DNA of 64,000 nucleotides from a virus (taxonomy: Duplodnaviria; Caudoviricetes). The stretch lies in IMG/VR virus record IMGVR_UViG_3300046318_000374, positions 293 through 64,292 of that record; one strand, 5' to 3'. Made by a program: the position numbers and the translations under genes. The notes beneath the pieces are model-generated. The model was not told where the DNA came from and did no database searches. It worked only from the letters and a program-made list of their open reading frames with translations. Shown here piece by piece: positions 2 through 54,576 of the stretch. Positions within the stretch are counted from its first letter, which is position 1. The number at the start of each line of letters is the position of its first letter.

Positions 2-901
2 CTTTAACTTTTGATTTACTGAAATCTTTGGTTCAGCTAATTGCATTAATGTTTTGTTTCGTAAAATAACATCTTTATTATCAATAATATCGGTGTATAA
101 TTTTGATTGTCCAACTTTACTTTCTGCGATTTGAAAAAACTCATCAAAATCAATAGTTCTATCTTCACTTAACTCTGGAAATCGTTTCATTACTGTCTTT
201 AATCCACATCCTTTTATACCCGGAATATTATCCGAATTATCTCCATCCAACGTTCTAAATAAAAGTAGATTTTGTGGATATAAACCGTAGTCTTCAAATA
301 CAGCTTTCCTATCATATGTTTTCTTTTTACTTGGAGAATAAATTGTGGTTTTATCATCCACTAACTGAAGAAAATCTTTATCCGTAGATGCAATTATACA
401 TTCTTCCCCCTCTCCCAAAATATGTTTAGCAATGTGTCCAATAACATCATCTGCTTCTATCCCATCGTAAATCATTGTTGTAATTGGTAAATTATCTAAA
501 ATATCCACCAACCATACAAATTGACGTTTCATAGAGATATTCTCATCCTCCTGGGTCATCATTTCTGGATACTGCCGATTAACTCTAAATCGATTTTTAC
601 CTCTATCGGCTTTGTATCCTCCATATATTTTTTTTCTACCATCACTACCACCCTTACCATCAAAGACAAGAACTACCCGTGTTGGATTAAATTGTCTGAT
701 TGCGTATGCAATTGATTTTAATGAACCAACAACTCCACCCGTGTGGTCACCATCTTCGTTCATCGTAGGATTGGTTGTCCAACTACGGATGAAGGTGTTT
801 AGTCCATCAATGACAAGAACTCTACTATTCCTTACCCTATCGGCACTAGAATTGTGTTCAGTTTCAACCTCATTAAGTAATTTTTTGTAAAGTTCTTTCA
901 T
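2..901 (-). CDS. 5'-3' exonuclease / flap endonuclease (Pol I N-terminal domain, T4 RNase H-like); truncated by window edge
   Basis: Not in the ORF track; translated by hand from ATG at 901: MKELYKKLL...VLVIDGLNTFIR...VFDGKGGS..RKKIYGGYKADR...EADDVIG...STDKDFLQL...DGDNSDNIPGIKGCGLKT. These are the FEN/PIN acidic motifs plus the H3TH motif. Confidence 0.9.
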   Translation of the reverse strand, partial: MKELYKKLLNEVETEHNSSADRVRNSRVLVIDGLNTFIRSWTTNPTMNEDGDHTGGVVGSLKSIAYAIRQFNPTRVVLVFDGKGGSDGRKKIYGGYKADRGKNRFRVNRQYPEMMTQEDENISMKRQFVWLVDILDNLPITTMIYDGIEADDVIGHIAKHILGEGEECIIASTDKDFLQLVDDKTTIYSPSKKKTYDRKAVFEDYGLYPQNLLLFRTLDGDNSDNIPGIKGCGLKTVMKRFPELSEDRTIDFDEFFQIAESKVGQSKLYTDIIDNKDVILRNKTLMQLAEPKISVNQKLK

Positions 902-37400: not shown

Positions 37401-40400
37401 GAAGAACCAGCAGTTCCCGTTGAACCAGATGTACCTGCCGTACCGCGTGTTCCAGAAGAACCAGATGTACCTCCACTACCAGATGTACCACTTGTACCAG
37501 AAGTACCAGCAGACCCCGTTGTTCCACTACTACCAGATGTTCCACTACTTCCGCTAGTTCCACTTGAGCCGGATGTTCCACTTGTTCCACTACTACCAGA
37601 TGTTCCGCTTGAACCAGTTGTACCACTTGAACCAGATGTTCCACTACTTCCAGATGTTCCGCTTGAGCCAGATGTACCACTACTTCCAGATGTTCCACTA
37701 CTTCCAGATGTTCCACTACTTCCAGATGTACCACTACTTCCGCTTGTTCCGCTTGAACCAGATGAGCCAGATGAACCGCTACTTCCACTACTTCCACTTG
37801 AACCAGAAGAACCGCTAGAACCAGTTGAACCACTACTTCCACTAGAGCCACTACTTCCACTACTTCCGCTTGAACCAGATGTTCCATCAATACCAGATGA
37901 ACCAGATGAACCAGATGAACCACTACTTCCGCTACTTCCACTTGAACCAGAAGAACCACTGCTTCCACTTGAACCAGAAGAACCAGAAGAACCATTTGTA
38001 CCAGATGTACCTGCTGCCTGCTGAACGTCTCTAGCTTCTAATTTTTTTGTTGTTTCATTCCAAACTACTACTAAATTTGAATTAGAGCCAGTGTTGAATG
38101 AATTAACATATATACTTCCACTTGCACCCAAACTACCACTAACTACAAAGTTTGCGTTAATTGTACTGTCTTGATTTGCTTGTACAAATGATGCAGTATC
38201 TACGTTTGTTGCGTTTAGTGCAAATTGTGCAACTGATGCAAATGATGATGAGTAAACATACATTGATGCAGTTTGCTCATTTTTAATAAATCCTTCCGCC
38301 GTTAATGCTCCACCTAATACATAAGATGCAGTTACGGCGTATGATGCTGATAATGCAAACGATGCAGTACCAACTGTCATTGAAGCAGTTTGTGAATTTT
38401 GTATAAAGTTTGCCGTATCTACATTGGCTGCATTAGCTGCAAACAATGCATACGATGATGATTCTGCAAAATACACACTCATCGAAGATGTTTGTGAATT
38501 AAGAACAAATTGACCTGTGTTAGCAGATGCAGATATTAATGCTTCTAATGAACCACTACTTAAACCCTGAACATTTGCTGCTACTTCTGCAAATCCTGCT
38601 CTTTCAGCATATGATGAAGAAAGTACAGTACCTATTACTCTATCACCCTGAATTGTTCCATTTATTAAAGAACCACCACTACCGATTACCGCGTGTCCAC
38701 TTGTTAAACCACTAAAGTTAATTTGGACAGTATCGTTATCAATTGCTAAAATTGATGCCGGTAGAATCATTTCTTCAGAGCCAGTTGCATAGACCTGAAC
38801 CATTGGATAACGAATATCCAAATTATGAACAATTGTTACCGAACTTACATTATTAAATGATACTGTCTCCGTTAAAGTAGTTTCTGGTTGAGGAATATAG
38901 TATCCTCTATTTTCATCCCATCTTAAAATATCGTATTCTACACTAGCAGTTGGTCCTCCACCTGTAAATGTGTAAGTACCATATAATGAACCACTTAAAT
39001 ATGGAGAGTATAGGAAACTAGCCGTTAATTCCGGCGTTACTAATCTATCAGTATATGTTGTACCATAAATACTTGCCGATGTATTAACTACAAACCCATT
39101 ATCAGGCGAAATTGATGCAGTAAATGAACCGGATTTTAATATTGGAGTTTCAAATGCTAAATTAGCAATGTTGATATTTGTTAAACCACTACCATCTCCC
39201 ACATAACGTGAACCAGATGCTGCAACTACATCACTACCAGTAATAAAGATACCGCCGGTAACATACAATGAACCAGTTATAGAAACATCCGTATCAACTT
39301 GCAACCCTTTGTTTGGTGAAATTACAGCAGTTACCGAACCAGAAGTAATTCTATCTAATTTAAGGTCTTGCAATGCTTCAGCAGGGATGTTAAACAAACC
39401 ACCACCATCACCAGAATAATATGCCGCCGTTACCGGTACATTTATAGTTAATAATTCAGGGTCAATTAACGCAACTGCAGAACCAGATTGAATTCTATCT
39501 ATTTCTAAATCTTGTAAAGCAGATGCTGGGATGTTAAATAATCCACCACCATCTCCTTTATATAGAGATGCAGTTATCGAACCGCTGAATGCAACTGAAC
39601 CACTAATAACTAAACTTAATGAAGATGTACTAACAGTTCCAGTTACAGTTATTGGTACATTTGATACAAATCCTAAATTTGGAGAAATAGAAGCAGTTGC
39701 ACTACCACTAGCAATACGAGGTGTATCACCAGAACGTTCTGCAATTACACCTGTCAATTGAGAACCATCTCCAAAATAAGTTATTGCCGTTACTGAACCA
39801 CTTACATTAACCGAACCTGTAAATTGTGAACCACTTTCGGGTGAAAATACAATAAGACCAGTTTCGGGCGATACGGAAGCAGTTACCGAACCACTAGCAA
39901 TACGAGGCGAATCGGCTGAACGTTCAGCGATTACACCGGTTAATTGAGAACCATCTCCATAATATGTAAATGCTCTTACCGAACCACTAACATTAACTGA
40001 ACCAGTGAATTGTGAACCACTTTCTAGTGATAAAACTACAAATCCGTTTTCCGGCGTTACCGAGGCAGTTACACTACCAGTTGCAATTAAATTAGCCGTT
40101 AATGCATCAGGAGTTAGGGCAGAACGAGGGATGTTAAATAATCCAGCACCACTACCACTAAAGAACGATGCAGTTGTTGCTAACTGAACAAGTCCATCTA
40201 CAAATATACTACCAGTAAATTGTGAACCACTTTCTAACGATATTACTCTGAACCCATCTTCAGGTGATACCGAAGCAGTTACACTACCCGTTGCAATTAA
40301 AGTTGCCGTTAATGCATCCGGAGTTAGAGCAGAACGAGGAATATTGAATAATCCCTCACCACTACCGGAGTAGAATGAACCAGATGATAATTGAACACCA

Positions 40401-43400
40401 CCACTTACAAATAAAGAACCTGTAAATTGTGAACCACTATCTAACGCCTCTACTTTGAAACCATATTCAGGACTTACCGAAGCAGTTATTGAACCACTAG
40501 CAATCTTAAACGCATCAGTTGATAGAGCAGATATTGGTATATCAAATAAATTAGCACCACTACCACTAAAACCAGATGCAGATACTGCTACATTAACAAC
40601 CATCCCAGCTTCAGGTGATATAGATGCCGAAGCAGAGCCTGAAATTATCTTTGAGGAATCAATTGCTAAATTAGCTAATGTAATATTGGTTAATTGAGAA
40701 CCATCTCCAACAAAATATGAACCAGTTGGTACATATAAGTTACCACTTACAATCGTTTCTCCAATAAATTCAATTTTTTGAGGTACTTCATATTGATTTA
40801 CAATATTGATTGTACCACCCATTGTTTGGTGTATTTGACAATTGTAATAAAGCGTATCAGGAGAACCACTAGGTGGTGTAAATGTGATAACACCAACATC
40901 ATCACCACCATTTGTTACACCATCACTATATACATTAGTTAATCCTGCACCATACACTGTCTTAAATAAGAATGGGTGCCCTGTTGCGTTTATGTTAAAT
41001 GTATAAGTTACTCCTCTTACTAATTTTAATGTTGGATTATCACCAACTATTGCACCATCAAATGTATATGCGGACATACCATTTGCAGTTACATCAAATG
41101 TAGTTAGTAAAGAACCAGTTGGTATTATTACAATTGAAGAAGAAACTGTCAATCCACCACTAATAAATGTATTAGTATTGATTTCCAATCCTCTATCCGG
41201 CGAAATTGATGCAGTTGCACTACCACTTGCTATTCTAAATGCTTCTTCCGATAATGCATTTAATGGAATATTAAATAAACCCTCTCCACTACCAGTAAAT
41301 GCAGATGCAGATACAGTATTTTGGAAATATGCAGGTACATTTGTTGTAAATCCACTAATTGGAGATACTGAAGCAGATGCCGAACCTGAAATTATTTGTG
41401 TAGAATCAATAGCTAAATTAGCTAATGAAATATTTCTTAATTTTGAACCATCTCCAACAAAGAATGAACCAGTTTCGGTGTAAATGTTACCATTTACTCT
41501 TAAACTACCAGTAAATTGTGAACCACTTATAGTAGATTCAACTCTAAATCCAAATTCTGGCGATACTGAAGCAGTTACTGAACCACTTACTATTCTAAAT
41601 GCCTCACTTGTTAAGGCAGATTGTGGGATATTAAATAAACCCTCACCAGAACCAGTAAACGCAGAAGCAGAAACCGTTGTATTAACTACTAATCCTCTAT
41701 CAGGTGATATTGAAGCAGTTGCCGAACCACTAGCAATTCTAAATGAATCACCAGAGATAGCAGATTGTGGAATATTGAATAATCCCTCACCAGAACCAGT
41801 AAATGCCGAAGCGGAAACTGTATTTGTGAAGTATGCGTCCACATTTACATTAAATCCTTCTACCGGAGAAATAGATGCAGTAGCAGAACCACTAGCAATC
41901 TTATTAATTTCAAAAGATAAAGCAGATTGTGGGATATTAAATAAACCCTCACCACTACCAGAGAAATAACCAGAGCCAGATGGTATAGTTGTTATACCAC
42001 TTATGTTAATACTACCAGTAAATTGTGAACCACTTACTAAAGATTCAACTCTAAACCCATTTTGTGGTGTTACCGAAGCAGTTACCGAACCAGATGTTAT
42101 TTGAGTACTAATTAATGCGTCTGGTGTTAGGGCAGTACGTGGTATATTAAATAATTTTTCACCAGAGCCACTAAAGAATGAACCAGAGTCAATAAATACA
42201 CTACCACTAATGGTTAAACTACCACTAATTGTTGCAAAAGTATTAACAACTAAACCAGTTGATGGTTCAATTGATGCAGTTGCACTACCACTTGCTATTA
42301 AAGTTGATGTTAATGATGGTATGTTTGTTAATCTACTACCATCACCCTGAAATGAACCACTAAATGAACCGCTAAACTCAATTGCAGTTATTGAACCACT
42401 TACTTCAATAGAACCTGTAAATTCTGAACCACTTTCTGATGATTCAACTCTAAATCCATATTCAGGGTTTACCGAAGCAGTTACCGAACCACTTGCTATG
42501 AAAGAACTAATTAAAGCATCTTGCGTTAAAGCAGTTCTAGGAATATTAAATAATCTTTCTCCACTACCACTAAATGATGAACCTGAAACTAATTCAATTC
42601 CACCACTTACAAATAAAGAACCAGTAAATTGTGAACCACTATCTATTGAAATTACTCTAAATCCATATTCAGGAGCAACTGATGCAGTAATACTACCACT
42701 TTTGATTTCAGTTGATATCAAAGCATCCTGCGTTAAGGCAGAACGAGGAATATCAAATAATTGTTGTCCACTACCACTAATGAACGAACCAGATGCCATA
42801 AAAATGCTTCCACTAAACGTAGAACCACTTGCAGTTGATTGAACTACAAATCCAAACTCATCAGTTACCGATGCAGTTACCGAACCACTAGCAATTAAAT
42901 TAGATAAAAGGGCATCTGGTGTTAAAGCAGAACGAGGAATATCAAATAAACCTCTACCGCTACCACTATATTGTGATGCCGATACCGAACCTTCAAAACT
43001 TGCCGAAGTATTAACTACTAAACCAAAATTAGGAGAAATAGATGCAGTTGCACTACCACTTGCAATTAAAGTACTAATTAATGCATCGGGAGTTAGAGCA
43101 GAACGTGGTATATCAAATAAATTTCTACCAGAACCACTAAATGATGAACCAGAATTGAGTAAAACACTACCACTTACACGTAAACTTCCACTTATTTCTG
43201 CAAAAGTATTAACAACTAAACCCCTATCAGGAGATATTGATGCAGTTGCACTACCACTAGCAATACGAGGAGCTACTGTTGATGGTACATTTAATAATTG
43301 TGAACCATCACCAACAAAAGAGCCAGTGAATGAACCACTTGCACTATTAACAATTAAAATATCTCTGATTTCAACCGAACCTGTGAATTCTTGTCTATCG

Positions 43401-43918
43401 GTTAATTCATCACCAAACTTATTAGAGCCAGATGAATAAATTACCGATGAAGAAACATATGATACGATTAGTTGTTCGGCAAATATAGATTGTGATACAT
43501 ATAAGTTACCCTGAACTGATGTATTACCCTGAATTACTGCGTTTGTATTTACAACCAAAGAAGTTCCATCAAACGATGCAGTTTGTGAACCACTTGCAAT
43601 AAATGGTGCTACAACCGATGGTACATTAATTAAACCACTACCATCTCCAAAGAAAGCACCACTAAATGAACCAGTTAAATCTGCAGTTCCTTTGAATGAT
43701 GATGTTATTGATGTTAATACTAATGTTTGAACAAACGCTCTATTACCCTCACTATCAGAAACTACAATTGCTGGATTTGTATCCAACGATGACGAGAATG
43801 TAGGAACACCCAAATTTGGTTCAACTTGGGATAAATCTACGAATTCATATCTGTCTGATGTTACATTTTTCGGTCCTTTTAATCGAACGCGTCCACTTAA
43901 TAGATTGCTTATTGCCAT
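34421..43918 (-). CDS. giant fibre protein (3165 aa): about 22 beta-rich repeats, cupredoxin domain, about 1000-aa Gly-X-Y tract, C-terminal knob
   Basis: Repeats G(S/D)G..L.NIP..AL...IASGS.TAS(I/V)SP; GHPF...LYYNCQIHQTMGG; long SSG/TSG tract; C-terminal TIDLS..N...ITWP..VRW.GG..P.LT.SGTDIL.F. Confidence 0.8.
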   Translation of the reverse strand: MAISNLLSGRVRLKGPKNVTSDRYEFVDLSQVEPNLGVPTFSSSLDTNPAIVVSDSEGNRAFVQTLVLTSITSSFKGTADLTGSFSGAFFGDGSGLINVPSVVAPFIASGSQTASFDGTSLVVNTNAVIQGNTSVQGNLYVSQSIFAEQLIVSYVSSSVIYSSGSNKFGDELTDRQEFTGSVEIRDILIVNSASGSFTGSFVGDGSQLLNVPSTVAPRIASGSATASISPDRGLVVNTFAEISGSLRVSGSVLLNSGSSFSGSGRNLFDIPRSALTPDALISTLIASGSATASISPNFGLVVNTSASFEGSVSASQYSGSGRGLFDIPRSALTPDALLSNLIASGSVTASVTDEFGFVVQSTASGSTFSGSIFMASGSFISGSGQQLFDIPRSALTQDALISTEIKSGSITASVAPEYGFRVISIDSGSQFTGSLFVSGGIELVSGSSFSGSGERLFNIPRTALTQDALISSFIASGSVTASVNPEYGFRVESSESGSEFTGSIEVSGSITAIEFSGSFSGSFQGDGSRLTNIPSLTSTLIASGSATASIEPSTGLVVNTFATISGSLTISGSVFIDSGSFFSGSGEKLFNIPRTALTPDALISTQITSGSVTASVTPQNGFRVESLVSGSQFTGSINISGITTIPSGSGYFSGSGEGLFNIPQSALSFEINKIASGSATASISPVEGFNVNVDAYFTNTVSASAFTGSGEGLFNIPQSAISGDSFRIASGSATASISPDRGLVVNTTVSASAFTGSGEGLFNIPQSALTSEAFRIVSGSVTASVSPEFGFRVESTISGSQFTGSLRVNGNIYTETGSFFVGDGSKLRNISLANLAIDSTQIISGSASASVSPISGFTTNVPAYFQNTVSASAFTGSGEGLFNIPLNALSEEAFRIASGSATASISPDRGLEINTNTFISGGLTVSSSIVIIPTGSLLTTFDVTANGMSAYTFDGAIVGDNPTLKLVRGVTYTFNINATGHPFLFKTVYGAGLTNVYSDGVTNGGDDVGVITFTPPSGSPDTLYYNCQIHQTMGGTINIVNQYEVPQKIEFIGETIVSGNLYVPTGSYFVGDGSQLTNITLANLAIDSSKIISGSASASISPEAGMVVNVAVSASGFSGSGANLFDIPISALSTDAFKIASGSITASVSPEYGFKVEALDSGSQFTGSLFVSGGVQLSSGSFYSGSGEGLFNIPRSALTPDALTATLIATGSVTASVSPEDGFRVISLESGSQFTGSIFVDGLVQLATTASFFSGSGAGLFNIPRSALTPDALTANLIATGSVTASVTPENGFVVLSLESGSQFTGSVNVSGSVRAFTYYGDGSQLTGVIAERSADSPRIASGSVTASVSPETGLIVFSPESGSQFTGSVNVSGSVTAITYFGDGSQLTGVIAERSGDTPRIASGSATASISPNLGFVSNVPITVTGTVSTSSLSLVISGSVAFSGSITASLYKGDGGGLFNIPASALQDLEIDRIQSGSAVALIDPELLTINVPVTAAYYSGDGGGLFNIPAEALQDLKLDRITSGSVTAVISPNKGLQVDTDVSITGSLYVTGGIFITGSDVVAASGSRYVGDGSGLTNINIANLAFETPILKSGSFTASISPDNGFVVNTSASIYGTTYTDRLVTPELTASFLYSPYLSGSLYGTYTFTGGGPTASVEYDILRWDENRGYYIPQPETTLTETVSFNNVSSVTIVHNLDIRYPMVQVYATGSEEMILPASILAIDNDTVQINFSGLTSGHAVIGSGGSLINGTIQGDRVIGTVLSSSYAERAGFAEVAANVQGLSSGSLEALISASANTGQFVLNSQTSSMSVYFAESSSYALFAANAANVDTANFIQNSQTASMTVGTASFALSASYAVTASYVLGGALTAEGFIKNEQTASMYVYSSSFASVAQFALNATNVDTASFVQANQDSTINANFVVSGSLGASGSIYVNSFNTGSNSNLVVVWNETTKKLEARDVQQAAGTSGTNGSSGSSGSSGSSGSSGSSGSSGSSGSSGSSGSSGIDGTSGSSGSSGSSGSSGSSGSTGSSGSSGSSGSSGSSGSSGSSGSSGTSGSSGTSGSSGTSGSSGTSGSSGTSGSSGTSGSSGTSGSSGTTGSSGTSGSSGTSGTSGSSGTSGSSGTSGSSGTTGSAGTSGTSGTSGSGGTSGSSGTRGTAGTSGSTGTAGSSGTSATSGSSGSSGSSGVDGSSGSSGTAGSSGSSGSSGSSGTTGSAGSAGSGGSAGTSGFDGTSGSSGSSGSNGSAGSAGSSGTSGEDGTSGTSGSNGTSGSSGSSGSSGTTGSSGTSGSSGSSGSSGSSGSSGSSGTTGSSGTTGSSGSSGSSGSSGSSGSSGSSGSSGSSGSSGTTGSEGTSGSSGSSGSSGTSGSSGSSGSSGSTGSSGTTGSEGTSGSSGSSGLDGSSGSSGSSGSSGSSGSSGSSGSSGSSGIDGSSGSSGTDGSTGTAGTSGTSGSSGSSGSSGTTGSDGTSGSSGSSGSSGSSGTSGSSGSSGSSGLDGTYFGSSGSSGSSGVSGTSGATGSSGTAGTPGTAGSSGVAGAAGTSGTSGQDGTYFGSSGTSGSSGSSGSSGSSGSSGSSGSSGSSGSSGVDGTSGIDGSSGSSGSSGSTGTDGTSGSSGSSGFDGTYFGSSGSSGSSGSSGSSGSSGTNGTSGSSGVDGTFFGSSGTSGSSGSSGSSGSSGSSGSSGSSGSSGLDGTYFGSSGTSGSSGSSGSSGSEGTSGTTGSSGSTGSSGSSGLDGTFFGSSGTAGSSGSSGSSGSTGTDGTSGTTGSSGSSGLDGTYFGSSGSSGSSGSSGEMGTSGSSGSTGTSGSSGLDGTFFGSSGTAGSSGSSGSSASNGTSGTSGSSGSSGLDGTYFGSSGSSGSSGSSGSSGSSGSTGTSGSSGSSGLDGTYFGSSGSSGSSGSSGSTGTSGSTGTDGTSGTTGSSGLDGTFFGSSGSSGTSGSSGSSGTSGIGTNGSSGSSGVDGTFFGTNGTNGTSGTTGSSGTSAGGTAGSGGTSGSSGSTGSAGTSGLLSLTGTTDNGIITLDGTAPNATVESNLTFDGTILTITGAVDASTYVTTTVFRETYSNLGSGTNVTIDLSTANNFRRQFTSSAAVTFTNPPAGKAFGFTLLIVNGGSGTITWPGTVRWAGGTGAPALTASGTDILVFYTYDGGTTYYGFVTGLNMA
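34890..38012 (-). repeat. about 3.1-kb Gly-X-Y Ser/Thr-rich coding repeat with about 12 DGT(Y/F)FG interruptions
   Basis: 9-nt periodicity; the translation is nearly pure GSS/GTS/GTT triplets. Confidence 0.92.
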
Positions 43919-44865: not shown

Positions 44866-47800
44866 TTATATTTGTAGTGCTAATGAGAACGGAGTTACTA
44901 ATGAGAACAATGATTTACTAAATGTTCTACCAACTAAAGTTCCAGTAGCTTGGTTGATACTTAATCCAGTACCAATTCTAAAGTCACCAGTTTCGTTACC
45001 AGATGTAAAGTAAATTCTACCTCCACCTAATTCCGTAATTTCATACGCAGGGTCCGCAGTTCCACTACCACCCTGATTAGAAGGCAGTGCCTTAAATGTT
45101 ACACCGGCTCCGTTATATGAGTAGTCAATACCAGTTGCCACAATTAAAGAACCAAATGATTCTAATGGTGCACCGGCTGCAACGAACTCAGCTCTTGTTC
45201 TTAAATATCTATTAGTTTCCAAAGTCTCTAATAGTTGGTCTCTTGTTACTGCAATTGCACTTCCATATTGACCATTGTAATAAGATGATGCCGCCGCTAT
45301 TCCTCTTTCGTTTCCACCATATAGTAAATCAGTTGCTACTGCATCAACAATCAAACCTGTATCACGAGAACAACTAGCCTCATTATATACTAAATATGGG
45401 AATGCTCCATTTGTGTATCCAATTGCTCTTTGTTTCAATTCATCTTTTGCTGCAATTAATCTATTGTATGCTGCTCTTCGTTTTGTGCCAGGGAACACCA
45501 TTTGTGTTTGGTTTACAATTTTTTCAGCCACACCTCTAGCAAAGTTAATTCCATCAACCGTTTGAATTTTTTGTCCAACAGTTCCATTGTCAGTATAAGA
45601 TGGTTTAATTGCTACTGATGGAATTTTATAGTAGTAAGAACCTGCCTCAATACTTCTTTCGTTTCCACCATACACTAAATCAGTTTTAACCGCATCTATA
45701 ATAAATCCTACATCACGAGAACAACTTACTTCGTTATATTGTAAAGTACTCCACGATGATGATAAGAATGCAATCGTTTCTTTTTGGATAAACAATCTAT
45801 TTCTTGTCAACAATTCTCTACCACCTAATGCAGAACCAGATGGTGATACAAAAGTTGGGTTAGTAATTACTTTGGTTGCTAACTTACCACCATATCTTAC
45901 ACCAGTAAGTGTTGGGTCTAATTGATTTGCTTCCGAAGGTACACCTGCTACCGTTGCTTTTGATGGGAATAGGTAATAATATGTGCCAGCAGTTACTGCT
46001 CTTTCAGTTCCACCATATAGTAAATCCGTTGCAGCCGCATCCGTTATATATCTTACATCACGAGAACAACTTGCCTCATTGTAGTAAACAGTACTCCAAG
46101 ATGAAGATACATATGCAATTACTTCTGCTGCTATGAAATCTTTATTTCTTCTTAATAAATCAAATGATGAAGAAACTTCTAATGATGCAGTATGGAACAC
46201 AATATTTTGTGCAATTTTTTGAGATATTCTACTTGCGTAATCAATACCCTCATTGGTTTGTTTTAATTGTCCTACGCTATCACCATCTCCCAATAAAGTT
46301 GCCTTTGATGGATATTTGTAATAGAATTCTCCACTTAAAACAGTTCTTTCGTTTCCACCATATAATAAATCAGTTGCTACACCATCAATAATGTATCCAA
46401 CATCTCTCTTACACTTATCTTTATTGTAAACAAAGAAACTCCATGCTGAATCTAACCAAGCCATTGTTTCGTTTTGGATAAATCCTCTATTGCTTCTTAA
46501 CAATTCAACTGATGCCGATACTGATTGAGATGCGGTTACAAATGTTTTGTTTGTAATTACATTTGCTGCCACACCACCTGCAAAATCAATTGCATTTAAT
46601 GTAGAATCTAATTGAGAGCCAGTTGCTTGTGATGGATACTTAAAGTAGTACTCACCGGCAGTTACACTTCTTTGATTTCCACCATAAAGAATATCAGTTG
46701 CCACCGCATCCACAATTAATCCAACATCTCTTCTACATTTAGATTCACTATATGCCAATGTACTCCAAGAAGAAGATACAAATGCAATTGTTTCCGCTTG
46801 AATGAATGGTTTGTTTTGTTTCAATGCATTGTAAACAGCAGATGCCGAAGCAGATGCAGTTACAAATGTTGTACCCAATACAATCTTTTGTGCCAATTGA
46901 GATGCGTAAATTATACCATCTAATGTTTCATCTAATTGAGAATCAGTTGCTTGTGATGGGTATAAATAATAATAATATCCATTATGAACTGATGCAGAGT
47001 TGCTATTCCAATATAAATCCTCTGCTGCACCACTTACAATTAAACCTACATCGCGAGAACAACTTGCCTCATTGTAAAGGAATGCAGTATCCGAATTAGA
47101 ACCAGTTACCCACGATGAACTAATGTATGCAATAGTTTCAGCCTGAATGAACGGAATGTTTGCTTTTAATAAGTTGTAAGCATTTATCACATTCGGGTCA
47201 GTTGATGGAGTTGTATATGGTATTGTTGCTGGTAATGAACCAGTACCATTTGTTACAATATCCGTAACTATACTAATTGATGCCGAAATTGCAGTTGCTT
47301 CAGTTTGTGTACCTGCACTTCCACTAATTTGTGGAGTGTTTGTTACTTTAATATTATTGTATGTGTTAGATACAAATTGTGGTGCACTAACTACATTACT
47401 TTGGATAATATTATCACTAAATCTTCTTGCGTAATCAATTGCCGTAGTTGTTTCAACTATTTGGTCACTTTCAATCGCCAACGATGGATATAGATAGTAG
47501 AACTCACCTGCTTTAGCTGCTCTTTGATTTCCACCATATAATAAATCAGTTGCAACCGCATCTACAATGTATCCAACATCTCTTCTACAAGATGTTTCAT
47601 TGTAGTATAGTTGTGGATATTTAGCATTTACAAATGCAACAGTTTCATTTTGGATAAATTCTTTATTACTTAATAATAAATCATAAGAATATTGAGTATT
47701 TGCATTTGGTGTTACAAATGTAGTGTTTTTTGCTACATTCATTGCCACACCTTTACCATATCTTATACCATCTAATGTTGGTTGTAATTGAGAATCAGTT

Positions 47801-50800
47801 GCCTGTGATGGGAATCTAAAATAGTAATCACCAGCAGTAAGACTTCTTTCATTTCCACCATATAATAAATCGGTTGCTACCGCATCTACAATATATGCAA
47901 TATCACGAGAACAACTTGCTTCGTTGTAATCAAATGTACTCCAAGAAGAACTTACATAAGCAATTACTTCGTTTTGGATAAATGGTTTATTTTTTATCAA
48001 CGATACATACGATGCCGAAGTTGATTGTGATGCTGATATATGAGCTAAAGTTGTATTTCTTACCACTCTTTCTGCCAATCCACTTGCGTATCTAATTGCA
48101 GTTAATGTTTGGTCTAATTGAGAACCAGTTGCTTCCGATGGGAAATCATAATAGTACTTACCATTTACATAAGAACCAGAATTACCACCATATAATAAAT
48201 CATAAGCAGCTCCATCGATAATGAATCCTAAATCTCTACTGCAACTTGCCTCATTGTAATCAAATGTACTCCAAGATGAACTTACAAATGCAATAGTTTC
48301 ATCTATAATCATTTGTTTGTTACCCAACAACAAATTGTATGCAGATACCATTTTAGTATTTGTATTTGCAGTTGCCGAAGAGGATATAAATGTAGTAGAA
48401 CCAGTTCCATTTGCTATAATATTAGCAACAATTGCAAATGATGCAGATACTAATGAAGCCTGAACTCTTCCTCCGGCACTTCCACTTATTAATTGTGGAG
48501 TATTTGTTACTTTAACACCATTTTGATTGTTTGATACTAATGTTGGATAAGTTCCCTCAATAATATCCATTACAATCTCAAATCCACTACCAATTTTTTG
48601 AATATCTGCTTCACTACCAGAAGATATTGATTGGAATAGTGTACCACCACTAATATTTAATGATGATGATGTATTTTCTATAATATTTGGTATAGAACCA
48701 GTTCCATTATTAACAATATCAATGATTGTTGCGTAAGAAGAACTTACTTTTGTTAAATCACTACCATTATATGTACCACTACCTGTAATTTGAGTTGTAG
48801 ATGTGATATGTAATAAAGTTGGAGTTGCTAATTGGAAACCATATTCAAAATTTCTTGCCAATGAATCCGGCGTACCATTCACACCAAAGTGAATAATATC
48901 TCTTACCAAACTAAACGATGAAGTTACCAAATCAGCATAAGTACTACCACCACTTATTGATGATGTAGTTGGTGTTTCATTTGTTACTTTTATTCCACTT
49001 TCAGTATTTTTAACAACTTCAGGTAAATATGATATACCATTTGATATAATTTCAGTTACCAATGCAAATGAAGAACTAATTTTAGTTAATTCAGTATTAC
49101 CAACACTTATCGATGATGTATATTGAGCAGTATTTGTTGCTTTTATATTATTATCCGTATTTTTACCAAAATTAACTGTATCTAATGTAATATTTGATAC
49201 CAATTTGTTCACTAAACTATTTGCATAATCTATTGAATCTATCGTTTGTCCTTTTTGTTCTACCGAAGTTGCCTTTGATGGGAATTTGTAATAATATACG
49301 CCAGATTCCACACTTCTTTCATTACCACCATAAACAATATCAGTTGCTACACTATCCACAATAAATCCAACATCTCTACTACAAGAAGCTTGGTTATATA
49401 CTAAATCAGGATAAAATGCGTTAGTATATTGAATAGTTTCTGCTTGAATAAATGCTCTATTTGCTTGTACTAAATTTCTTACATTTAATTTTTCTTTTGA
49501 AGCAGTTACAAATGTATTACCCAATATAATTTTTTGAGCCAAACCACTACCATACTTAATACCAGTGATTGTTGGGTCTAATTGTTGAGTAACCGATGGT
49601 ACTCCACCAACAGTTGCAGCAGATGGATATAAATAATAGAATAATCCGGCAGTAGATGTTCTTTCATTACCACCATAAACCAAATCCGTTCTTACCGCAT
49701 CAAGTATATACTTTACATCTCTTTCACATTTTGCTTGATTGTATGAAACACCATACCAAGACGATGATACATACTCAACAACTTCTCTTGCTATTAAATC
49801 TTTATTTAATGATAATAAATTACTAGCATTTGTTTTATTTTGTGAAGCAGTTACAAAAGTAGTACCAACAACAATTTTTTGTGTCATTCTACCTGCGTAA
49901 TCAATACCATCTATTGTTTGTACTAATTGAGAACCAGTTGCCTGCGATGGATATAGGTAATAGAATGTTCCAGCTGCCACAGCTCTTTCATTCCCACCAT
50001 AAACTAAATCGGTTCTTACTGCATCAATAACGTGTCCAATATCTCTCTTACACTTAACATCATCGTAATCAAAATTACCCCACGAAGATGATAAGTAAGT
50101 AATAGTTTCACTTTGAATAAATTCTCTATTGTTCTTTAATTGTAAAGAAGCATTTTGTACTTGTTCGTTTGGATAAGTGTAAACTATATTTTGTAAAGTT
50201 TTTTGTGCTAATTTACTAGCATACTTTATACCATCCACAGTTTGATTTAATTGAGAACCAGTTGCTGCTGATGGATATTCTAAATAGTACTTACCACTTA
50301 CTAACGAAGCAGAATATGAATTAAATAATAAATCTTCTGCTGCACCACTTACAATTAAACCAATATCTCTACTACAACTTGCTTCATTATATTCAAACCC
50401 ATTCCAAGATGAAGATAGGTAAGCAATAGTTTCCGCCTGAATAAACGGAATATTTTGTTTTAACAAATTATATGCATAATATACAACCGATGCAGTTTGC
50501 GCAGTTGTATATGATGATGTTGGTAAACTTAAAGATGCGGTCACACCACTATTTCCACTTAAAATATCAACAACTAACGATATAGATGCGGATATTGCAG
50601 ATGCCTGTGTGGAAGAACCACTATAAGATGCCGAAACATATTGTGGTGTATTTGATACTTTGATATTTTGTAATGTGTTTAGGGTAATTGTAGGAACTAC
50701 ACCTAAACCATTTTTAATAATATTTTTAATTGTTTCAACCGATGAACTAACCGCAGTTGCCTGTGTTTGAGTTGCATTACTACCAGTCCATTGACTTAAA

Positions 50801-53800
50801 TTTGTAACTTTAATATTTTGTAAAGTGTTTGATTGGTATGTTGGTATTGAACCTGTTCCATTTAGTACAATATTTACAATCGTACCAATAGAAGAACTAA
50901 TTGCATTAGCTTCCGTTTGAGATGCAGATGCCGCACTAACTAAATTTAATCCACTTACAACAATTAAATCTCCGTGTGATGAAGTTATAGCAGGTTTTGC
51001 AGAACTACCACTTTCTATAATTTTAGTAATTATATCAAATTTAGTATCAATTGATGATGTTAAATTAGCAGATGATGTTACTGATGTTATTTGAGTACCA
51101 TTGGTAATATTTAATGGATTTCTAGTATTCCAATCTTGCCCATTTTGTTGTGCTACAATTGAATTTAATACACCGGTTCCTCTTTTAATAATTTTTTCAA
51201 CAATATTGAATGAACTACTAATTGAACTAATTTCTGCTGCAGTACCTGAAATAGATGATGTTACATTTGTTAATGCAGTTACTTTAATATTTTTTTCATC
51301 ATTACCAATAATACGTGGAGTATCTAACAATATGTTTTGTACTACATAATCACCAATAATTTTTGTATATTGTATTGCACCAGATGTTTCTTTCTTTTGT
51401 GTAGAAGTTGCAATTGATGGGTAATAATAATAATTTCTACCAGCAGTTACACTTCTTTCGTTTCCACCATACAATAAATCCGTTGCAATTGCATCTACAA
51501 TATATCCAACATCTCTTCTACATTTTGTAGTACTATATTTTAATTGAGGATATGCAACATTAATAAATTGAATTGTTTCATTTTGAATTAATTCTTTGTT
51601 TGCTCTCAATAAATCATAAGCTGCTTGTGTGGATGAAGAAGCAGTTACAAATGTTGTGTTTGTGATTAAATTACCAACAACACCTTTTGCATATCGAATA
51701 CCAGTTAAAGTTTGTTCTAACTGATTTGTAGATGATGGAACACCACCAACAACAGCTGCCGATGGGTATAGGTAATAAAATTGACCAGCAATTGTACTTC
51801 TTTCATTTCCACCATATTTCAAATCAGTTGAAACTGCATCTAAAATATGTCCAATATCTCTTTTACATTTAACCTCATCATAATAGAAACCATCACCACC
51901 ACTCCAAGAAGAAGAAATAAATGCAATAGTTTCATTTTGTACAAAACTTCTATTATCAATTATAGATTGCCAAACTGCATCTATTTCAGTTGATGGATAA
52001 TTAAAGGTTACATTTTTTACAACTTTTTCAGCCATTCCAGCTGCATATTTTACAGCAGTTAAAGTTGGTGTTAATTCAGTTGTAATTGCGTTTGATGGGT
52101 ATAAGTAATAGTACAAACCACTTCTAATAGATTCTTCATTACCACCATATAACAAGTCTTTTGCTACACCATCTATGATGTATCCAATATCTCTTTTACA
52201 AGTTGTTTGATTATATGAAAACGCACTCCACGATGATGATAAGAATGCAATGGTTTCCTCCTGAATAAATTCTTTATTATTTACCAATTGGTCATATGCG
52301 TTTATCACATCCACATTTTGACTTGGATTTGATGAACTATAAAAAGTGTCCGGATATGTAATTGTACTAGCAATTAATTCTCTAGGAGTATCGTTTGAGT
52401 TTACAATATGAAACTCACCAATCATATCCTCACTATTTTGAGCTACATAATATAATTTATTTGGTGCATCGTATGGAACTTCAAATGTTATATTACCAAC
52501 ACTATCTCCATTATTCACTACACCAAAATCATAATCATATGAATCAGTTATTCCGCTAATTGGTGATTTTCTAATGAAGAATGGATAGTTGTTTGGACCA
52601 GCTGCTTCGGATGCGGAAACATAGAACTTATACTCTTCACCTCTAAACAAAGTAATTGTAGGATTACCACTAACTCCATCAAATGAATAAGATGAACTAC
52701 CATTATTTGTTATAGTATATGCTCTTTTATGATTAGTAGGAATATCTTCAAACGCACTACCAGTACCATTTGCTAATATATTATATACAATACTAAAACT
52801 GGCACTTATTGCGCTTACAGTAGATAACGATGATGAAATACCGGTTGTAAATTGTGGTGTATCGGTTACTTTTATACTTGCACTATTATTTGATACAATT
52901 GTAGGTGCTACACTTAATCCATTTGTTACAATATTAATTATATTATCAAATGATGCACTTACACTACCAGTTGTAATATCACCAGCAGGATATGCAGATG
53001 GTTCTATTGTAATATCAGTTACTTTTATTGCATCTTCAGTATTTGATTTGAAAACATATGAACCAGTACCATTTGAGAATATACTTAATATAGTTCCAAA
53101 TGATTGACTGATATGTGTTAAATCACTTAATGATGCCGAATCAATTGATGATGTAATTTGAGTTGCACCTAAAATATTATATGGCGAATCAAACCCATAT
53201 CCTTTGTTTGAACTTTTAGCTAAAAGAGTTGGAAAATTACCAATTCCGTTTTCAACAATTGCACTAACTAAATTAAAATCTGCAACTACTTGCGCAGTTG
53301 TTTCGGTAGTTGGTGTTAAGGCAGATTCACTACCTGATAAGTATCGTTGTAATTCACTAGTTACTTTAATTCCTTCGGCAGTATTTAGAGTTGTAATTGT
53401 AGGTAATCCATCCTCTAATCCTTTATTAAGAACATCTACAACACAACTCCAACTTGCTCTTACTTTATCACGTGCATCAATATTACCACCCTGACTACTA
53501 CTAATAAAGCGAGAACCAGATGCATACATACCATATAAACCAAACGAAATATTTGAGTTGTTTAGTGTAGCATGTCCACCATTGTTTACTCTAATTGCAT
53601 AGTATGAGAAGTTATTAAAGAAAGATACCAACTGAATGAATCCTCTACCATTTACCAAACATCCCACACCATTAGGAGAAATTTGTGTATAAGCATCCAA
53701 TACCATAGATGCCAATGGTGAATCAGGATGAACCGCATCTCCGTTTACATACAATCCACCACCCCCCGGTGGAATCTCTTCGTAGAGTTCAGTAAATGAG

Positions 53801-54576
53801 TTCTCTTGGTTTGAAATTTGTGAGCAGTTCTGAACATATGGCGAGGTTGTAATAAACGCTCCTGGTTGAAAAGCTACACCAAAACCTTTTTCAGGATTTA
53901 TTTGGTCTGGATATAATCTCAATCCACCCATTGTAATTTCAGCGATATAACAACCACTATTTACCCAAAATAAATCCTCCCCTTTGTTCTTTGCATTAAT
54001 TTTTGTAATACGCAGACCAGACCCCCAAATTGTAGAGTTTTTTGGAAGTATTACAGGATTATCTTCATAGTATGTACCTGCTTGCACTCTAATTACATAA
54101 CCACTATAACTTGATTTAGGGTCTAACCCATATCTACCATCATATCCCGGTGTTGCTAATTGAGCTGCTCTTTTTACTGTTCTTAAAGGGTATTGAATTG
54201 AACGTCCATCGTTATTATCATCACCATCGGTAGAAGATACATAAAGGGTTGGGACGTTAGCACCAAAATCTTTTGAACGAATACCATCATATAATACCGT
54301 ATCGCTTGCTAACAATGCATTTGATGCAGTTGCAGATAATTGAGTTAATCTTGTAAGATTTAATTCACCATCAAATGTTAAAGAACCAGTAAGAAAAACG
54401 GAACCTGTAATTTCACCTCTATCAGTTAATTCATTACCTAAAAAGAAATCATTATCTACCTGTAAAGAACCACTCAATAAGGAACTTCCGGTAACAATTA
54501 AATCTCCACCAATTCGCAATGAGCCGGATATATCCTGTTGTTCTTCAATTTGTTTACGCGGTATTAATCTTGCCAT
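44866..54576 (-). CDS. giant structural protein (3236 aa): pectin-lyase-like beta-helix with 16 inserted phycobiliprotein/globin-like CxRD repeats
   Basis: LYVS..GDDNNDG.S...P.RTVKRA and SPYVQNC beta-helix N-terminus; 16 x N..FIQ.E.....CxRD.G.I.D....DL.YGGN; C-terminal GGRIYFTS...GDFRIG.GL.INQATG. Confidence 0.8.
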   Translation of the reverse strand: MARLIPRKQIEEQQDISGSLRIGGDLIVTGSSLLSGSLQVDNDFFLGNELTDRGEITGSVFLTGSLTFDGELNLTRLTQLSATASNALLASDTVLYDGIRSKDFGANVPTLYVSSTDGDDNNDGRSIQYPLRTVKRAAQLATPGYDGRYGLDPKSSYSGYVIRVQAGTYYEDNPVILPKNSTIWGSGLRITKINAKNKGEDLFWVNSGCYIAEITMGGLRLYPDQINPEKGFGVAFQPGAFITTSPYVQNCSQISNQENSFTELYEEIPPGGGGLYVNGDAVHPDSPLASMVLDAYTQISPNGVGCLVNGRGFIQLVSFFNNFSYYAIRVNNGGHATLNNSNISFGLYGMYASGSRFISSSQGGNIDARDKVRASWSCVVDVLNKGLEDGLPTITTLNTAEGIKVTSELQRYLSGSESALTPTTETTAQVVADFNLVSAIVENGIGNFPTLLAKSSNKGYGFDSPYNILGATQITSSIDSASLSDLTHISQSFGTILSIFSNGTGSYVFKSNTEDAIKVTDITIEPSAYPAGDITTGSVSASFDNIINIVTNGLSVAPTIVSNNSASIKVTDTPQFTTGISSSLSTVSAISASFSIVYNILANGTGSAFEDIPTNHKRAYTITNNGSSSYSFDGVSGNPTITLFRGEEYKFYVSASEAAGPNNYPFFIRKSPISGITDSYDYDFGVVNNGDSVGNITFEVPYDAPNKLYYVAQNSEDMIGEFHIVNSNDTPRELIASTITYPDTFYSSSNPSQNVDVINAYDQLVNNKEFIQEETIAFLSSSWSAFSYNQTTCKRDIGYIIDGVAKDLLYGGNEESIRSGLYYYLYPSNAITTELTPTLTAVKYAAGMAEKVVKNVTFNYPSTEIDAVWQSIIDNRSFVQNETIAFISSSWSGGDGFYYDEVKCKRDIGHILDAVSTDLKYGGNERSTIAGQFYYLYPSAAVVGGVPSSTNQLEQTLTGIRYAKGVVGNLITNTTFVTASSSTQAAYDLLRANKELIQNETIQFINVAYPQLKYSTTKCRRDVGYIVDAIATDLLYGGNERSVTAGRNYYYYPSIATSTQKKETSGAIQYTKIIGDYVVQNILLDTPRIIGNDEKNIKVTALTNVTSSISGTAAEISSISSSFNIVEKIIKRGTGVLNSIVAQQNGQDWNTRNPLNITNGTQITSVTSSANLTSSIDTKFDIITKIIESGSSAKPAITSSHGDLIVVSGLNLVSAASASQTEANAISSSIGTIVNIVLNGTGSIPTYQSNTLQNIKVTNLSQWTGSNATQTQATAVSSSVETIKNIIKNGLGVVPTITLNTLQNIKVSNTPQYVSASYSGSSTQASAISASISLVVDILSGNSGVTASLSLPTSSYTTAQTASVVYYAYNLLKQNIPFIQAETIAYLSSSWNGFEYNEASCSRDIGLIVSGAAEDLLFNSYSASLVSGKYYLEYPSAATGSQLNQTVDGIKYASKLAQKTLQNIVYTYPNEQVQNASLQLKNNREFIQSETITYLSSSWGNFDYDDVKCKRDIGHVIDAVRTDLVYGGNERAVAAGTFYYLYPSQATGSQLVQTIDGIDYAGRMTQKIVVGTTFVTASQNKTNASNLLSLNKDLIAREVVEYVSSSWYGVSYNQAKCERDVKYILDAVRTDLVYGGNERTSTAGLFYYLYPSAATVGGVPSVTQQLDPTITGIKYGSGLAQKIILGNTFVTASKEKLNVRNLVQANRAFIQAETIQYTNAFYPDLVYNQASCSRDVGFIVDSVATDIVYGGNERSVESGVYYYKFPSKATSVEQKGQTIDSIDYANSLVNKLVSNITLDTVNFGKNTDNNIKATNTAQYTSSISVGNTELTKISSSFALVTEIISNGISYLPEVVKNTESGIKVTNETPTTSSISGGSTYADLVTSSFSLVRDIIHFGVNGTPDSLARNFEYGFQLATPTLLHITSTTQITGSGTYNGSDLTKVSSSYATIIDIVNNGTGSIPNIIENTSSSLNISGGTLFQSISSGSEADIQKIGSGFEIVMDIIEGTYPTLVSNNQNGVKVTNTPQLISGSAGGRVQASLVSASFAIVANIIANGTGSTTFISSSATANTNTKMVSAYNLLLGNKQMIIDETIAFVSSSWSTFDYNEASCSRDLGFIIDGAAYDLLYGGNSGSYVNGKYYYDFPSEATGSQLDQTLTAIRYASGLAERVVRNTTLAHISASQSTSASYVSLIKNKPFIQNEVIAYVSSSWSTFDYNEASCSRDIAYIVDAVATDLLYGGNERSLTAGDYYFRFPSQATDSQLQPTLDGIRYGKGVAMNVAKNTTFVTPNANTQYSYDLLLSNKEFIQNETVAFVNAKYPQLYYNETSCRRDVGYIVDAVATDLLYGGNQRAAKAGEFYYLYPSLAIESDQIVETTTAIDYARRFSDNIIQSNVVSAPQFVSNTYNNIKVTNTPQISGSAGTQTEATAISASISIVTDIVTNGTGSLPATIPYTTPSTDPNVINAYNLLKANIPFIQAETIAYISSSWVTGSNSDTAFLYNEASCSRDVGLIVSGAAEDLYWNSNSASVHNGYYYYLYPSQATDSQLDETLDGIIYASQLAQKIVLGTTFVTASASASAVYNALKQNKPFIQAETIAFVSSSWSTLAYSESKCRRDVGLIVDAVATDILYGGNQRSVTAGEYYFKYPSQATGSQLDSTLNAIDFAGGVAANVITNKTFVTASQSVSASVELLRSNRGFIQNETMAWLDSAWSFFVYNKDKCKRDVGYIIDGVATDLLYGGNERTVLSGEFYYKYPSKATLLGDGDSVGQLKQTNEGIDYASRISQKIAQNIVFHTASLEVSSSFDLLRRNKDFIAAEVIAYVSSSWSTVYYNEASCSRDVRYITDAAATDLLYGGTERAVTAGTYYYLFPSKATVAGVPSEANQLDPTLTGVRYGGKLATKVITNPTFVSPSGSALGGRELLTRNRLFIQKETIAFLSSSWSTLQYNEVSCSRDVGFIIDAVKTDLVYGGNERSIEAGSYYYKIPSVAIKPSYTDNGTVGQKIQTVDGINFARGVAEKIVNQTQMVFPGTKRRAAYNRLIAAKDELKQRAIGYTNGAFPYLVYNEASCSRDTGLIVDAVATDLLYGGNERGIAAASSYYNGQYGSAIAVTRDQLLETLETNRYLRTRAEFVAAGAPLESFGSLIVATGIDYSYNGAGVTFKALPSNQGGSGTADPAYEITELGGGRIYFTSGNETGDFRIGTGLSINQATGTLVGRTFSKSLFSLVTPFSLALQI

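Follow-up and report, generated by a model that had tools for sequence, protein, structure and literature searches.

In 64,000 nucleotides of DNA from a virus of the Caudoviricetes (IMG/VR record IMGVR_UViG_3300046318_000374, positions 293 to 64,292; hereafter the window), a single open reading frame on the minus strand encodes a protein of 3236 residues, P0001, that holds an entire array of two kinds of repeat. One is a helical core with a C-x-R-D motif and the other a short strand-helix unit, designated H, and the two are set out in alternating blocks (Table 1). The arrangement argues for nesting, in which an outgoing H and a returning core, which may lie far apart in the chain, would together make up one domain.

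The regular expression C.RD finds exactly 16 sites in P0001, at residues 793, 904, 1019, 1401, 1509, 1617, 1732, 2112, 2222, 2330, 2506, 2614, 2722, 2837, 2952 and 3069. A profile built from these sites delimits 16 cores of ~105-114 residues each (~108 typically), separated mostly by linkers of 3-7 residues. Of the 20 cysteines of the protein, 16 belong to the C-x-R-D motifs and are the only ones in the array, and the other four are in the N-terminal part. The H unit spans ~52 residues and reads '..NIKVT..' and then 'AISASFSIV..I..NG', a strand followed by a helix; profile search yields 16 of them, 15 of which are strong (39.7 to 69.2 bits). The remaining one, H1 (residues 353-387), is weak and divergent (4.4 bits, E 0.023), and a profile rebuilt from 1811 H units of relatives missed it at E <= 0.05; its position is that of a detected fifth H in part of the relatives. 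From N to C terminus the order is 5H,3C,5H,4C,5H,3C,1H,6C, and the running excess of H is 5,2,7,3,8,5,6,0. An earlier note, made from the sequence, had given this order and this excess for 16 cores and 16 helices; order and core number are exactly as it put them, and the helices come to 15 clear ones and the divergent H1. The range assigned there to the array, 45170-53475 (residues 368-3136), lies inside it and misses the first 15 residues of H1 and the N- and C-terminal framing parts.

Table 1. Parts of the P0001 gene, with positions in the window and residue numbers of the protein
Feature	Position	Strand	Remarks
Whole gene, P0001	44866..54576	-	Putative giant virion appendage protein; open reading frame; matches to PHROG 4527 and 5342
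N-terminal part, beta-helix-like, residues 1-352	53521..54576	-	Common to 427-residue relatives without the array (phmmer, residues 1-395)
H1-H5, residues 353-613	52738..53520	-	H1 divergent; H3 long-linker (branch-base) unit
Beta-rich insert of ~140 residues, residues 614-755	52312..52737	-	Predicted tip of branch A, between H5 and core 1
Cores 1-3, residues 756-1089	51310..52311	-	Predicted partners H5, H4, H3
H6-H10, residues 1090-1351	50524..51309	-	H7 long-linker unit
Cores 4-7, residues 1364-1803	49168..50487	-	Predicted partners H10, H9, H8, H7
H11-H15, residues 1804-2066	48379..49167	-	H13 long-linker unit; H11-H12 are the partner chain in the two-chain test
Cores 8-10, residues 2075-2401	47374..48354	-	Predicted partners H15, H14, H13; modelled with them
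H16, residues 2402-2453	47218..47373	-	Predicted trunk-tip helix unit; helix block at pLDDT 96 in the model
Cores 11-16, residues 2462-3143	45148..47193	-	Predicted partners H16, H12, H11, H6, H2, H1
C-terminal part, residues 3144-3236	44869..45147	-	Conserved; best stretch of PHROG 3442 at 3142-3234; adjoins the N-terminal part in short relatives

Balance of the two repeats across relatives

A search with residues 1085-2460 returned at least 120 relatives, of 2389-5154 residues among the matches listed, and two scans of the collection gave 148 loci. Relatives with matches to both the N- and the C-terminal part of P0001 were called complete, which left 150 distinct proteins; in the tally, where phmmer showed a stretch resembling H1 ahead of the first H detected, it was scored as one H. 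In 126 of the 150 the two repeats are exactly balanced and the running excess never turns negative, in agreement with the co-variation of the two counts in homologs that the earlier note had put forward as a check. One H is lacking in 21 and two in one, two are of a tandem type in which the H profile finds nothing, and none of the 150 has more H units than cores. Because the deficits fall mostly in a block that is 6H in close relatives, they are read as divergent units that were probably missed.

The balanced proteins represent 21 distinct architectures with 12 to 28 cores, and wherever architectures differ the differences are paired, H with core. Thus the last block occurs as 5H,8C, as 5H,3C,1H,6C, as ..2H,7C or as ..3H,8C; the second hairpin ranges from 4H,3C up to 8H,7C; and an extra module appears as 6H,6C, 7H,7C, 6H,4C,4H,6C or 4H,2C,4H,6C. 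The minimal array is a single 4H,4C hairpin, found in proteins of ~1,090 residues (P0156, P0161).

A tandem organization is seen in three distant relatives (L067, L068 and L070; 27% identical), which share with P0001 the beta-helix ends, the cores and one H-like helix per core. Their 15-19 detected cores stand in plain tandem with an H-like helix after each ('AFDEIIDILNNGTGNADPI'), a beads-on-a-string layout in which H and cores do not form blocks of their own and hence are not nested. They fit a basic domain that consists of one helix per core, as far as sequence can tell. The spacing from the H-like helix to the next core is that of the tip module of P0001. The circular permutation that had been proposed for the array is not demonstrated. 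In L068 the giant open reading frame starts from position 6272.

Junction markers, growth at the tip and co-divergence

Markers stand at the joints that bracket matching predicts. The core that closes a block is mostly of a distinct type, in which [YF]PxL replaces SSSW, and the H that is bracket-paired with it follows the previous H by 56-67 residues in 278 of 299 instances, as against 47-55 residues for 1288 of the 1346 other H units. In the architecture strings, the H units from such a long-linker unit onward to the last of its block are as numerous as the cores of the block that follows (3:3, 4:4, 6:6, 3:3). In P0001 itself H3, H7 and H13 are of the long-linker type, and the bracket scheme pairs them with cores 3, 7 and 10, respectively.

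When the units of relatives are mapped onto P0001, the '5H,8C' proteins prove to lack H16 and core 11, and in the 2H,7C and 3H,8C proteins additional cores are inserted after the H block and ahead of the core 11 orthologue. The series 0H/5C, 1H/6C, 2H/7C and 3H/8C (mapped relatives P0115, P0013 and P0003) varies at this one point, and the extra cores beside the core 11 orthologue are, by this sequence comparison, growth at what would be the tip of a hairpin.

Co-divergence was analysed in 49 distinct proteins that share one architecture of 43 units each. Pairwise distances were taken for every unit, the mean signal was removed, the residuals were correlated, and for each core the 21 H units were ranked. 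The nested partner has a mean rank of 1.81 of 21, is first in 12 of 21 cases and has a mean correlation of 0.366. Other schemes of pairing fare as follows: the nearest upstream H has a mean rank of 6.14 and a mean correlation of 0.158, the k-th H taken with the k-th core 8.38 and 0.048, and the same partners in reversed order 8.05 and 0.098. Of 20,000 random one-to-one assignments, not one equalled the nested pairing. The signal persists over distance: the mean rank is 1.67 for the six nested pairs with a separation of 9-41 units, and of these the pair at 41 units, formed by the first detected H and the next-to-last core, has rank 1 and r 0.56. Non-partners separated by more than 5 units give mean correlations of -0.05 to -0.09.

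Structure prediction

Two balanced fragments of P0001 were modelled with AlphaFold2. The fragment with H13-H15 and cores 8-10 (residues 1905-2402; 498 residues, 38 sequences) reached a predicted local distance difference test score (pLDDT) of 84.8 and a predicted template modelling score (pTM) of 0.82. The tip module of H16 and core 11 (residues 2400-2578; 179 residues, 56 sequences), which had been suggested beforehand as a test, reached 85.6 and 0.84, with the helix of H16 at the block pLDDT given in Table 1. Both models are almost wholly helical (DSSP). The ranges over which known folds match the branch model fit H15 with core 8 (113..270, 132..271), H14 with core 9 (85..377, 89..382) and H13 with core 10 (29..491, 33..487); ranges of the forward-pairing type (30..270 or 132..490) are absent from the fold matches of this model.

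For the trunk, cores 12-13 were predicted in a two-chain job with H11-H12, which lie ~700 residues upstream. The score was 0.55, the best of three controls reaching 0.01, and the verdict was weak support. Of 80 solved complexes 58 attain the mark for a pass, as do 2 of 110 mismatched pairs, and passing scores of 0.60 or less comprise just 7 of the 80 solved complexes and both passing mismatches; as custom alignments were used, these calibration counts hold roughly. At least 83% of the contacts agree between runs, and the partner has a pLDDT of at least 69. Cores 12-13 have a pLDDT of 75-77 with the H units as against 44-45 with an unrelated partner in the same job.

A nested-domain model and its alternatives

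The reading that accounts best for these observations, to which we assign a probability of about 0.85, is that the array consists of nested domains. P0001 would be an appendage of a T4-like myophage in which a beta-helix protein of the 427-residue type is split by an insert of 2,790 residues. The insert would form 16 globular domains of ~160 residues each, every one made from two pieces distant in sequence: an outgoing piece, the short strand and amphipathic helix of H, and a returning piece, a core of four to five helices of the phycobiliprotein/globin type with the invariant C-x-R-D. Read as brackets, the order would pair C1-H5, C2-H4 and C3-H3, C4-H10 to C7-H7, and C8-H15, C9-H14 and C10-H13 in three side branches of 3, 4 and 3 domains, and C11-H16, C12-H12, C13-H11, C14-H6, C15-H2 and C16-H1 in a six-domain trunk, with both chain ends coming back to the beta-helix base. 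Each joint between domains would be crossed by two strands of the chain, giving a stiff rod, and such joints would permit growth either by addition of an H and core pair at the tip of a hairpin or by duplication of a whole hairpin. Extra domains on the hairpin tips and the outgoing linkers would probably bind the host surface. We infer the branched shape, the exact contacts, the stiffness and the host-binding role from this scheme, and the function would then be that of a rigid branched virion appendage displaying binding domains. The helix-out, core-back nesting of the earlier note is supported by the balance of counts, the junction markers, the growth at the tip, the co-divergence, the high pTM of balanced fragments and the weak two-chain pass for distant trunk pieces.

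Several points weigh against this reading. As H1 is weak, the strict count of H in P0001 is 15 to 16, and at the threshold used 22 of the 150 complete relatives lack one or two H units. The relatives are kin, the 49 proteins of the co-divergence analysis sharing ancestry, and recombination that swapped whole balanced hairpins could mimic co-divergence without direct contact; such exchange, if it added to the signal, would itself reflect nested modules. The pairing in the models is deduced from pTM, pLDDT and aligned ranges, the two-chain test is a weak pass, and the virion location of P0001 comes from PHROG annotations.

Phage fibres are usually oligomers, and H might accordingly complete the core of a neighbouring chain by domain swapping, which would leave the pairing one-to-one and abolish the single-chain tree. 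The counts by themselves fit this arrangement equally, and the docking of H11-H12 and cores 12-13 as separate chains is, weakly, in its favour. We regard it as improbable: pairing in trans needs equal totals and not an order that never turns negative, whereas the bracket order, the markers at branch bases and the growth at hairpin tips are requirements of pairing within a chain, and the balanced single-chain fragments are predicted with confidence. It is likewise improbable that the two arrays are structurally separate, the cores being closed domains, the H units forming a strand-helix solenoid, and the counts being kept equal either because the arrays run in parallel and need the same length or through the manner of duplication. 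The short linkers between cores, the four to five helices that each core has of its own, and the alignment of the best fold matches to the core without the H helix would all suit such an arrangement. It has to contend with an H helix confidently placed inside the tip model, with the loss of confidence in the cores when their H partner is withdrawn, with co-divergence that selects one specific H per core even across 9-41 units, and with distant tandem relatives that retain one H-like helix per core.

A reading of H units and cores as independent repeat types was dropped. A coincidental 16 = 16 balance between two independent repeat families could draw on the one weak H and the strict count that follows from it; against a balance kept over 21 architectures with no excess of H, and a co-divergence signal that none of the random pairings matches, it is scarcely credible and was rejected.

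The frame of the array and its accessory domains

Among 120 shorter proteins related to the N-terminal part (phmmer, residues 1-395), 64 contain the C-terminal part as well. In relatives of 427-463 residues (e.g. P0213) the end parts lie ~77 residues apart, compared with ~2,790 residues in P0001, and because they are thus adjacent the array is read as an insert in a small protein of the beta-helix type. The insertion into a beta-helix, already put forward in the earlier note, is therefore supported at the level of sequence comparison. Some of the shorter relatives carry Pfam PF07602/PF22842 in precomputed annotation. In some relatives of 550-650 residues (e.g. P0183) the gap is ~170 residues and, by eye, resembles one core without cysteine.

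Accessory domains are found at set places, which in the predicted tree lie on its outside. The insert at the predicted tip of branch A has no Pfam match; the protein atlas, which provides leads only, gives clusters of viral hypothetical proteins at 0.93 and, at rank 13, a cluster in which 17% of the members carry Copper-bind PF00127. Other relatives have inserts of ~150 or of 431-437 residues at turns from H to core, and an F5/8 type C domain, of the galactose-binding type, lies between a trunk H and a branch-base H in P0010 (residues 3507-3622) and P0020 (residues 2855-2970). Because these domains would be on the outside of the tree, a role in binding is inferred for them.

Genomic setting

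The gene for P0001 is flanked by head and connector genes on one side and by collagen-like fibre genes, sheath and tape measure on the other. The major head protein is encoded at 59326-60954 (PHROG 138, E 3.5e-72), and a head-tail adaptor match in the neighbourhood is weak; the sheath gene (20666-23002) and the gene for a tape-measure-like protein are downstream of the P0001 gene. Judged by these matches, the neighbours are a myophage structural module. Like the P0001 gene, all large open reading frames of the window are on the minus strand, and the window covers most of its source record, which has 64,292 bases and is rated 32% complete.

P0001 itself matches two PHROG families of giant phage fibre proteins, PHROG 4527 'short tail fiber protein' (E 5.3e-138, 14 stretches) and PHROG 5342 'tail fiber protein' (E 4.9e-137, 17 stretches). 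A role as short tail fibre would be an annotation carried over from the PHROG name. In Pfam the protein has sub-threshold matches to Wza_C and RT_RNaseH_2 and no others, and these, being sub-threshold, were dismissed as noise.

Two further giant genes of the window match collagen-like tail-fibre families, one of 3165 residues (34421-43918, minus strand), within which the G+C content climbs to 0.48 at 36-38 kb, and one of 2669 residues (24309-32318, minus strand). A profile search found neither H units nor cores in either protein. Directly downstream of the P0001 gene is that of P0242 (43983-44846, minus strand), a protein of 287 residues. Its residues 78-182 form one diverged core-like stretch without cysteine (20.2 bits, E 3.1e-7), flanked by beta-rich ends and followed by an apparent H-like helix at about residues 212-230, seen by eye.

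The capsid protein is nearest to those of an uncultured phage (54.8%), Flavobacterium phage vB_FspM_immuto (51.7%) and Microcystis phage Mel-JY01 (51.6%).

The core fold and the bilin question

The fold matches of the single-domain model are led by phycobiliproteins. The top eight are all chains of that family, with Z 7.7-9.2 over 98-118 aligned residues, values at which caution is in order since helical folds at Z under ~13 may share a mere common arrangement. They include 5aqd_M (Z 9.2, root-mean-square deviation 2.8, 118 aligned), 8imk_G (Z 9.2), 8or7_A (Z 8.9), the photocobilin 8j2y_B (Z 8.9) and ApcE 4xxi_A (Z 8.6); colicin pore domains and sensor globins come next, and phycobiliprotein families lead the matches of the branch model too. 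The matches cover residues 1 to ~150 of chains of 158-184 residues, and the aligned ranges begin after the H helix. The cores had been described as a globin fold that lacks its final helix. The likeness to phycobiliproteins and sensor globins (Z 7-9.2), with the H helix outside the aligned range, agrees with the first half of that description; as to the second, no globin helix was identified as the one that H replaces.

Other comparisons gave less. Foldseek with the tip-module model against the PDB gave nothing at E <= 0.001, phycocyanins appearing just at E ~0.7-1.6, and sequence-profile searches of PDB chains returned no matches for the branch alignment at E <= 1 or for the core alignment at E <= 10. 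The phycobiliprotein family PF00502 has no match on P0001 at E <= 0.1, none on any of the 16 cores at E <= 10 and none in a six-frame search of the record. Its cut-off of 22.2 bits is passed by two relatives, P0009 (36.4) and P0037 (26.2), in neither of which a single stretch passes alone.

The motif gives a more specific comparison. All 16 cores of P0001 have C-x-R-D, and of 3067 distinct cores from relatives 3057 have it and 2947 contain exactly one cysteine. The phycocyanin genes of NC_009928 encode KCVRDIGYY (alpha Cys84) and ACLRDMEII (beta Cys82), and a profile of the 3067 cores places C-x-R-D on Cys84/Cys82 in all four subunits of NC_009928, if weakly (7.3 bits or less). In an hhalign comparison of core and phycocyanin it falls on Cys82 with a probability of 79% (P 1.6e-5, 54 columns). 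The motif thus lies on the helix equivalent to the bilin-attachment helix of phycobiliproteins. In the position of C-x-R-D, and possibly in helical fold, the cores are like phycobiliproteins and bilin-binding globins (BBAGs, photoglobins, PF00502); they differ in size, ~108 as against ~160-170 residues, in that part of the phycobiliprotein fold is absent and a helix encoded elsewhere appears, in the models, to complete the core, and in being repeats of a virion protein rather than antenna subunits. The core is phycobiliprotein-like and probably a distant relative, and it is not filed in PF00502.

CXRD is named as the usual bilin-attachment motif in PMC10151467, and it may be asked whether each C-x-R-D is a working attachment site and the fibre carries a covalent bilin array. 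The near-invariance of the motif, whose cysteine is mostly the sole one of its core, would fit, as would the adjacent genes for heme oxygenase and Fe_bilin_red present in 4 of the 29 records that carry a relative; among the 29, 3 records are at least 90% complete, and 2 of these have the pair. Four of the 29 encode CpeT (G002, G004, G007 and G008); the paired genes for heme oxygenase and the ferredoxin-dependent bilin reductase are those of G001, G002, G004 and G008, the records behind L016, L042, L039 and L046. For some of the bilin-binding globins of heterotrophs, attachment of bilin is reported to need no lyase (PMC10151467). Against such an array stand the absence of heme oxygenase, Fe_bilin_red and CpeT from the record of P0001, itself 32% complete, the capsid protein with its nearest relatives in Flavobacterium and Microcystis phages, and a core shorter than a phycobiliprotein, and working bilin sites are considered unlikely.

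The literature offers two points of contact. In the passages of PMC6628666 on which we draw, the cause of the light-dependent adsorption of some cyanophages is called unknown and tail fibres are suggested; those of PMC2984593 mention cpeT and bilin genes and no pigment-like virion protein. Our searches found no literature linking PF00502 with phage.

Relation to known systems

The closest architectural precedent found is Si3, an insert of eight SBHM domains in the cyanobacterial RNA polymerase trigger loop; four of the eight are assembled from sequence-distant elements (PMC10895346). As far as the part of that report used here goes, Si3 resembles the array of P0001 in being a long insert in a host domain, composed of repeats of one fold, whose chain folds back on itself. 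Domains that arise from sequence-distant elements through such folding back are, in P0001, a matter of prediction and comparison. Si3 differs in its beta (SBHM) fold and in its eight domains, four discontinuous, with no branching described in that part of the report. The P0001 family, unlike Si3, is helical, with 12-28 domains of which nearly all would be discontinuous, with several predicted branches and a strict bracket grammar; P0001 has neither the SBHM beta fold nor a trigger-loop location, its models being helical and its gene lying in a phage structural module. By analogy, the array would work like Si3 in topology and is not a member of its class.

Among phages, megablast of the P0001 gene against 50,697 phage records gave no match. 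With tblastn it matched 291 phage records, all at less than 60% identity and all named Synechococcus, Cyanophage, Prochlorococcus or Marine. These sequence relatives include the giants of T4-like cyanophages (PHROG 4527, 5342 and 701; e.g. SRSM4_214 of S-RSM4, 4482 residues), just 23-35% identical to P0001 among the 30 tblastn matches listed. SRSM4_214 (L159, 6922-20370) has C-x-R-D cores, and by eye it can be resolved into helix-A units (A) and C-x-R-D remainders (R), seven of each, arranged as A A R A A A A R R R R A R R, a balanced order. Its domain is seemingly split after the first helix, whereas that of P0001 is split before it. Sub-profiles for helix A of the core and for the rest of the core were too insensitive on S-RSM4, and the 7:7 count comes from reading of the sequence. 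About 1 kb upstream of SRSM4_214 is a CpeT-like gene, with tRNA genes and an HNH gene between. At the level of the searches made, no published description of a branched nested-domain phage fibre and no study of the architecture of the cyanophage giants was found; the tree in supplementary Fig. S11 of PMC10151467 may hold phage sequences.

Implications

Repeat proteins are normally strings of contiguous domains. In P0001 there are instead two half-domains ordered by a bracket grammar, and this grammar, which is kept across many relatives from marine and other metagenomes, predicts from sequence alone a branched single-chain tree of 12 to 28 domains. Nested insertion would provide a rule by which a large rigid appendage can grow without unfolding the parts that already exist. 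It would also be a new type of scaffold for protein design, and it makes a concrete target for cryo-electron microscopy among phages of the uncultured type.

The likeness of the core to bilin-binding globins and the retention of the attachment motif in nearly every copy make two old questions testable, namely why phages carry genes for bilin synthesis and why some adsorb only in light. If the sites do carry bilin, the array would be the acceptor for the products of the phage heme oxygenase, bilin reductase and CpeT genes, and the appendage would be a candidate photoreceptor for the light-dependent adsorption of some cyanophages.

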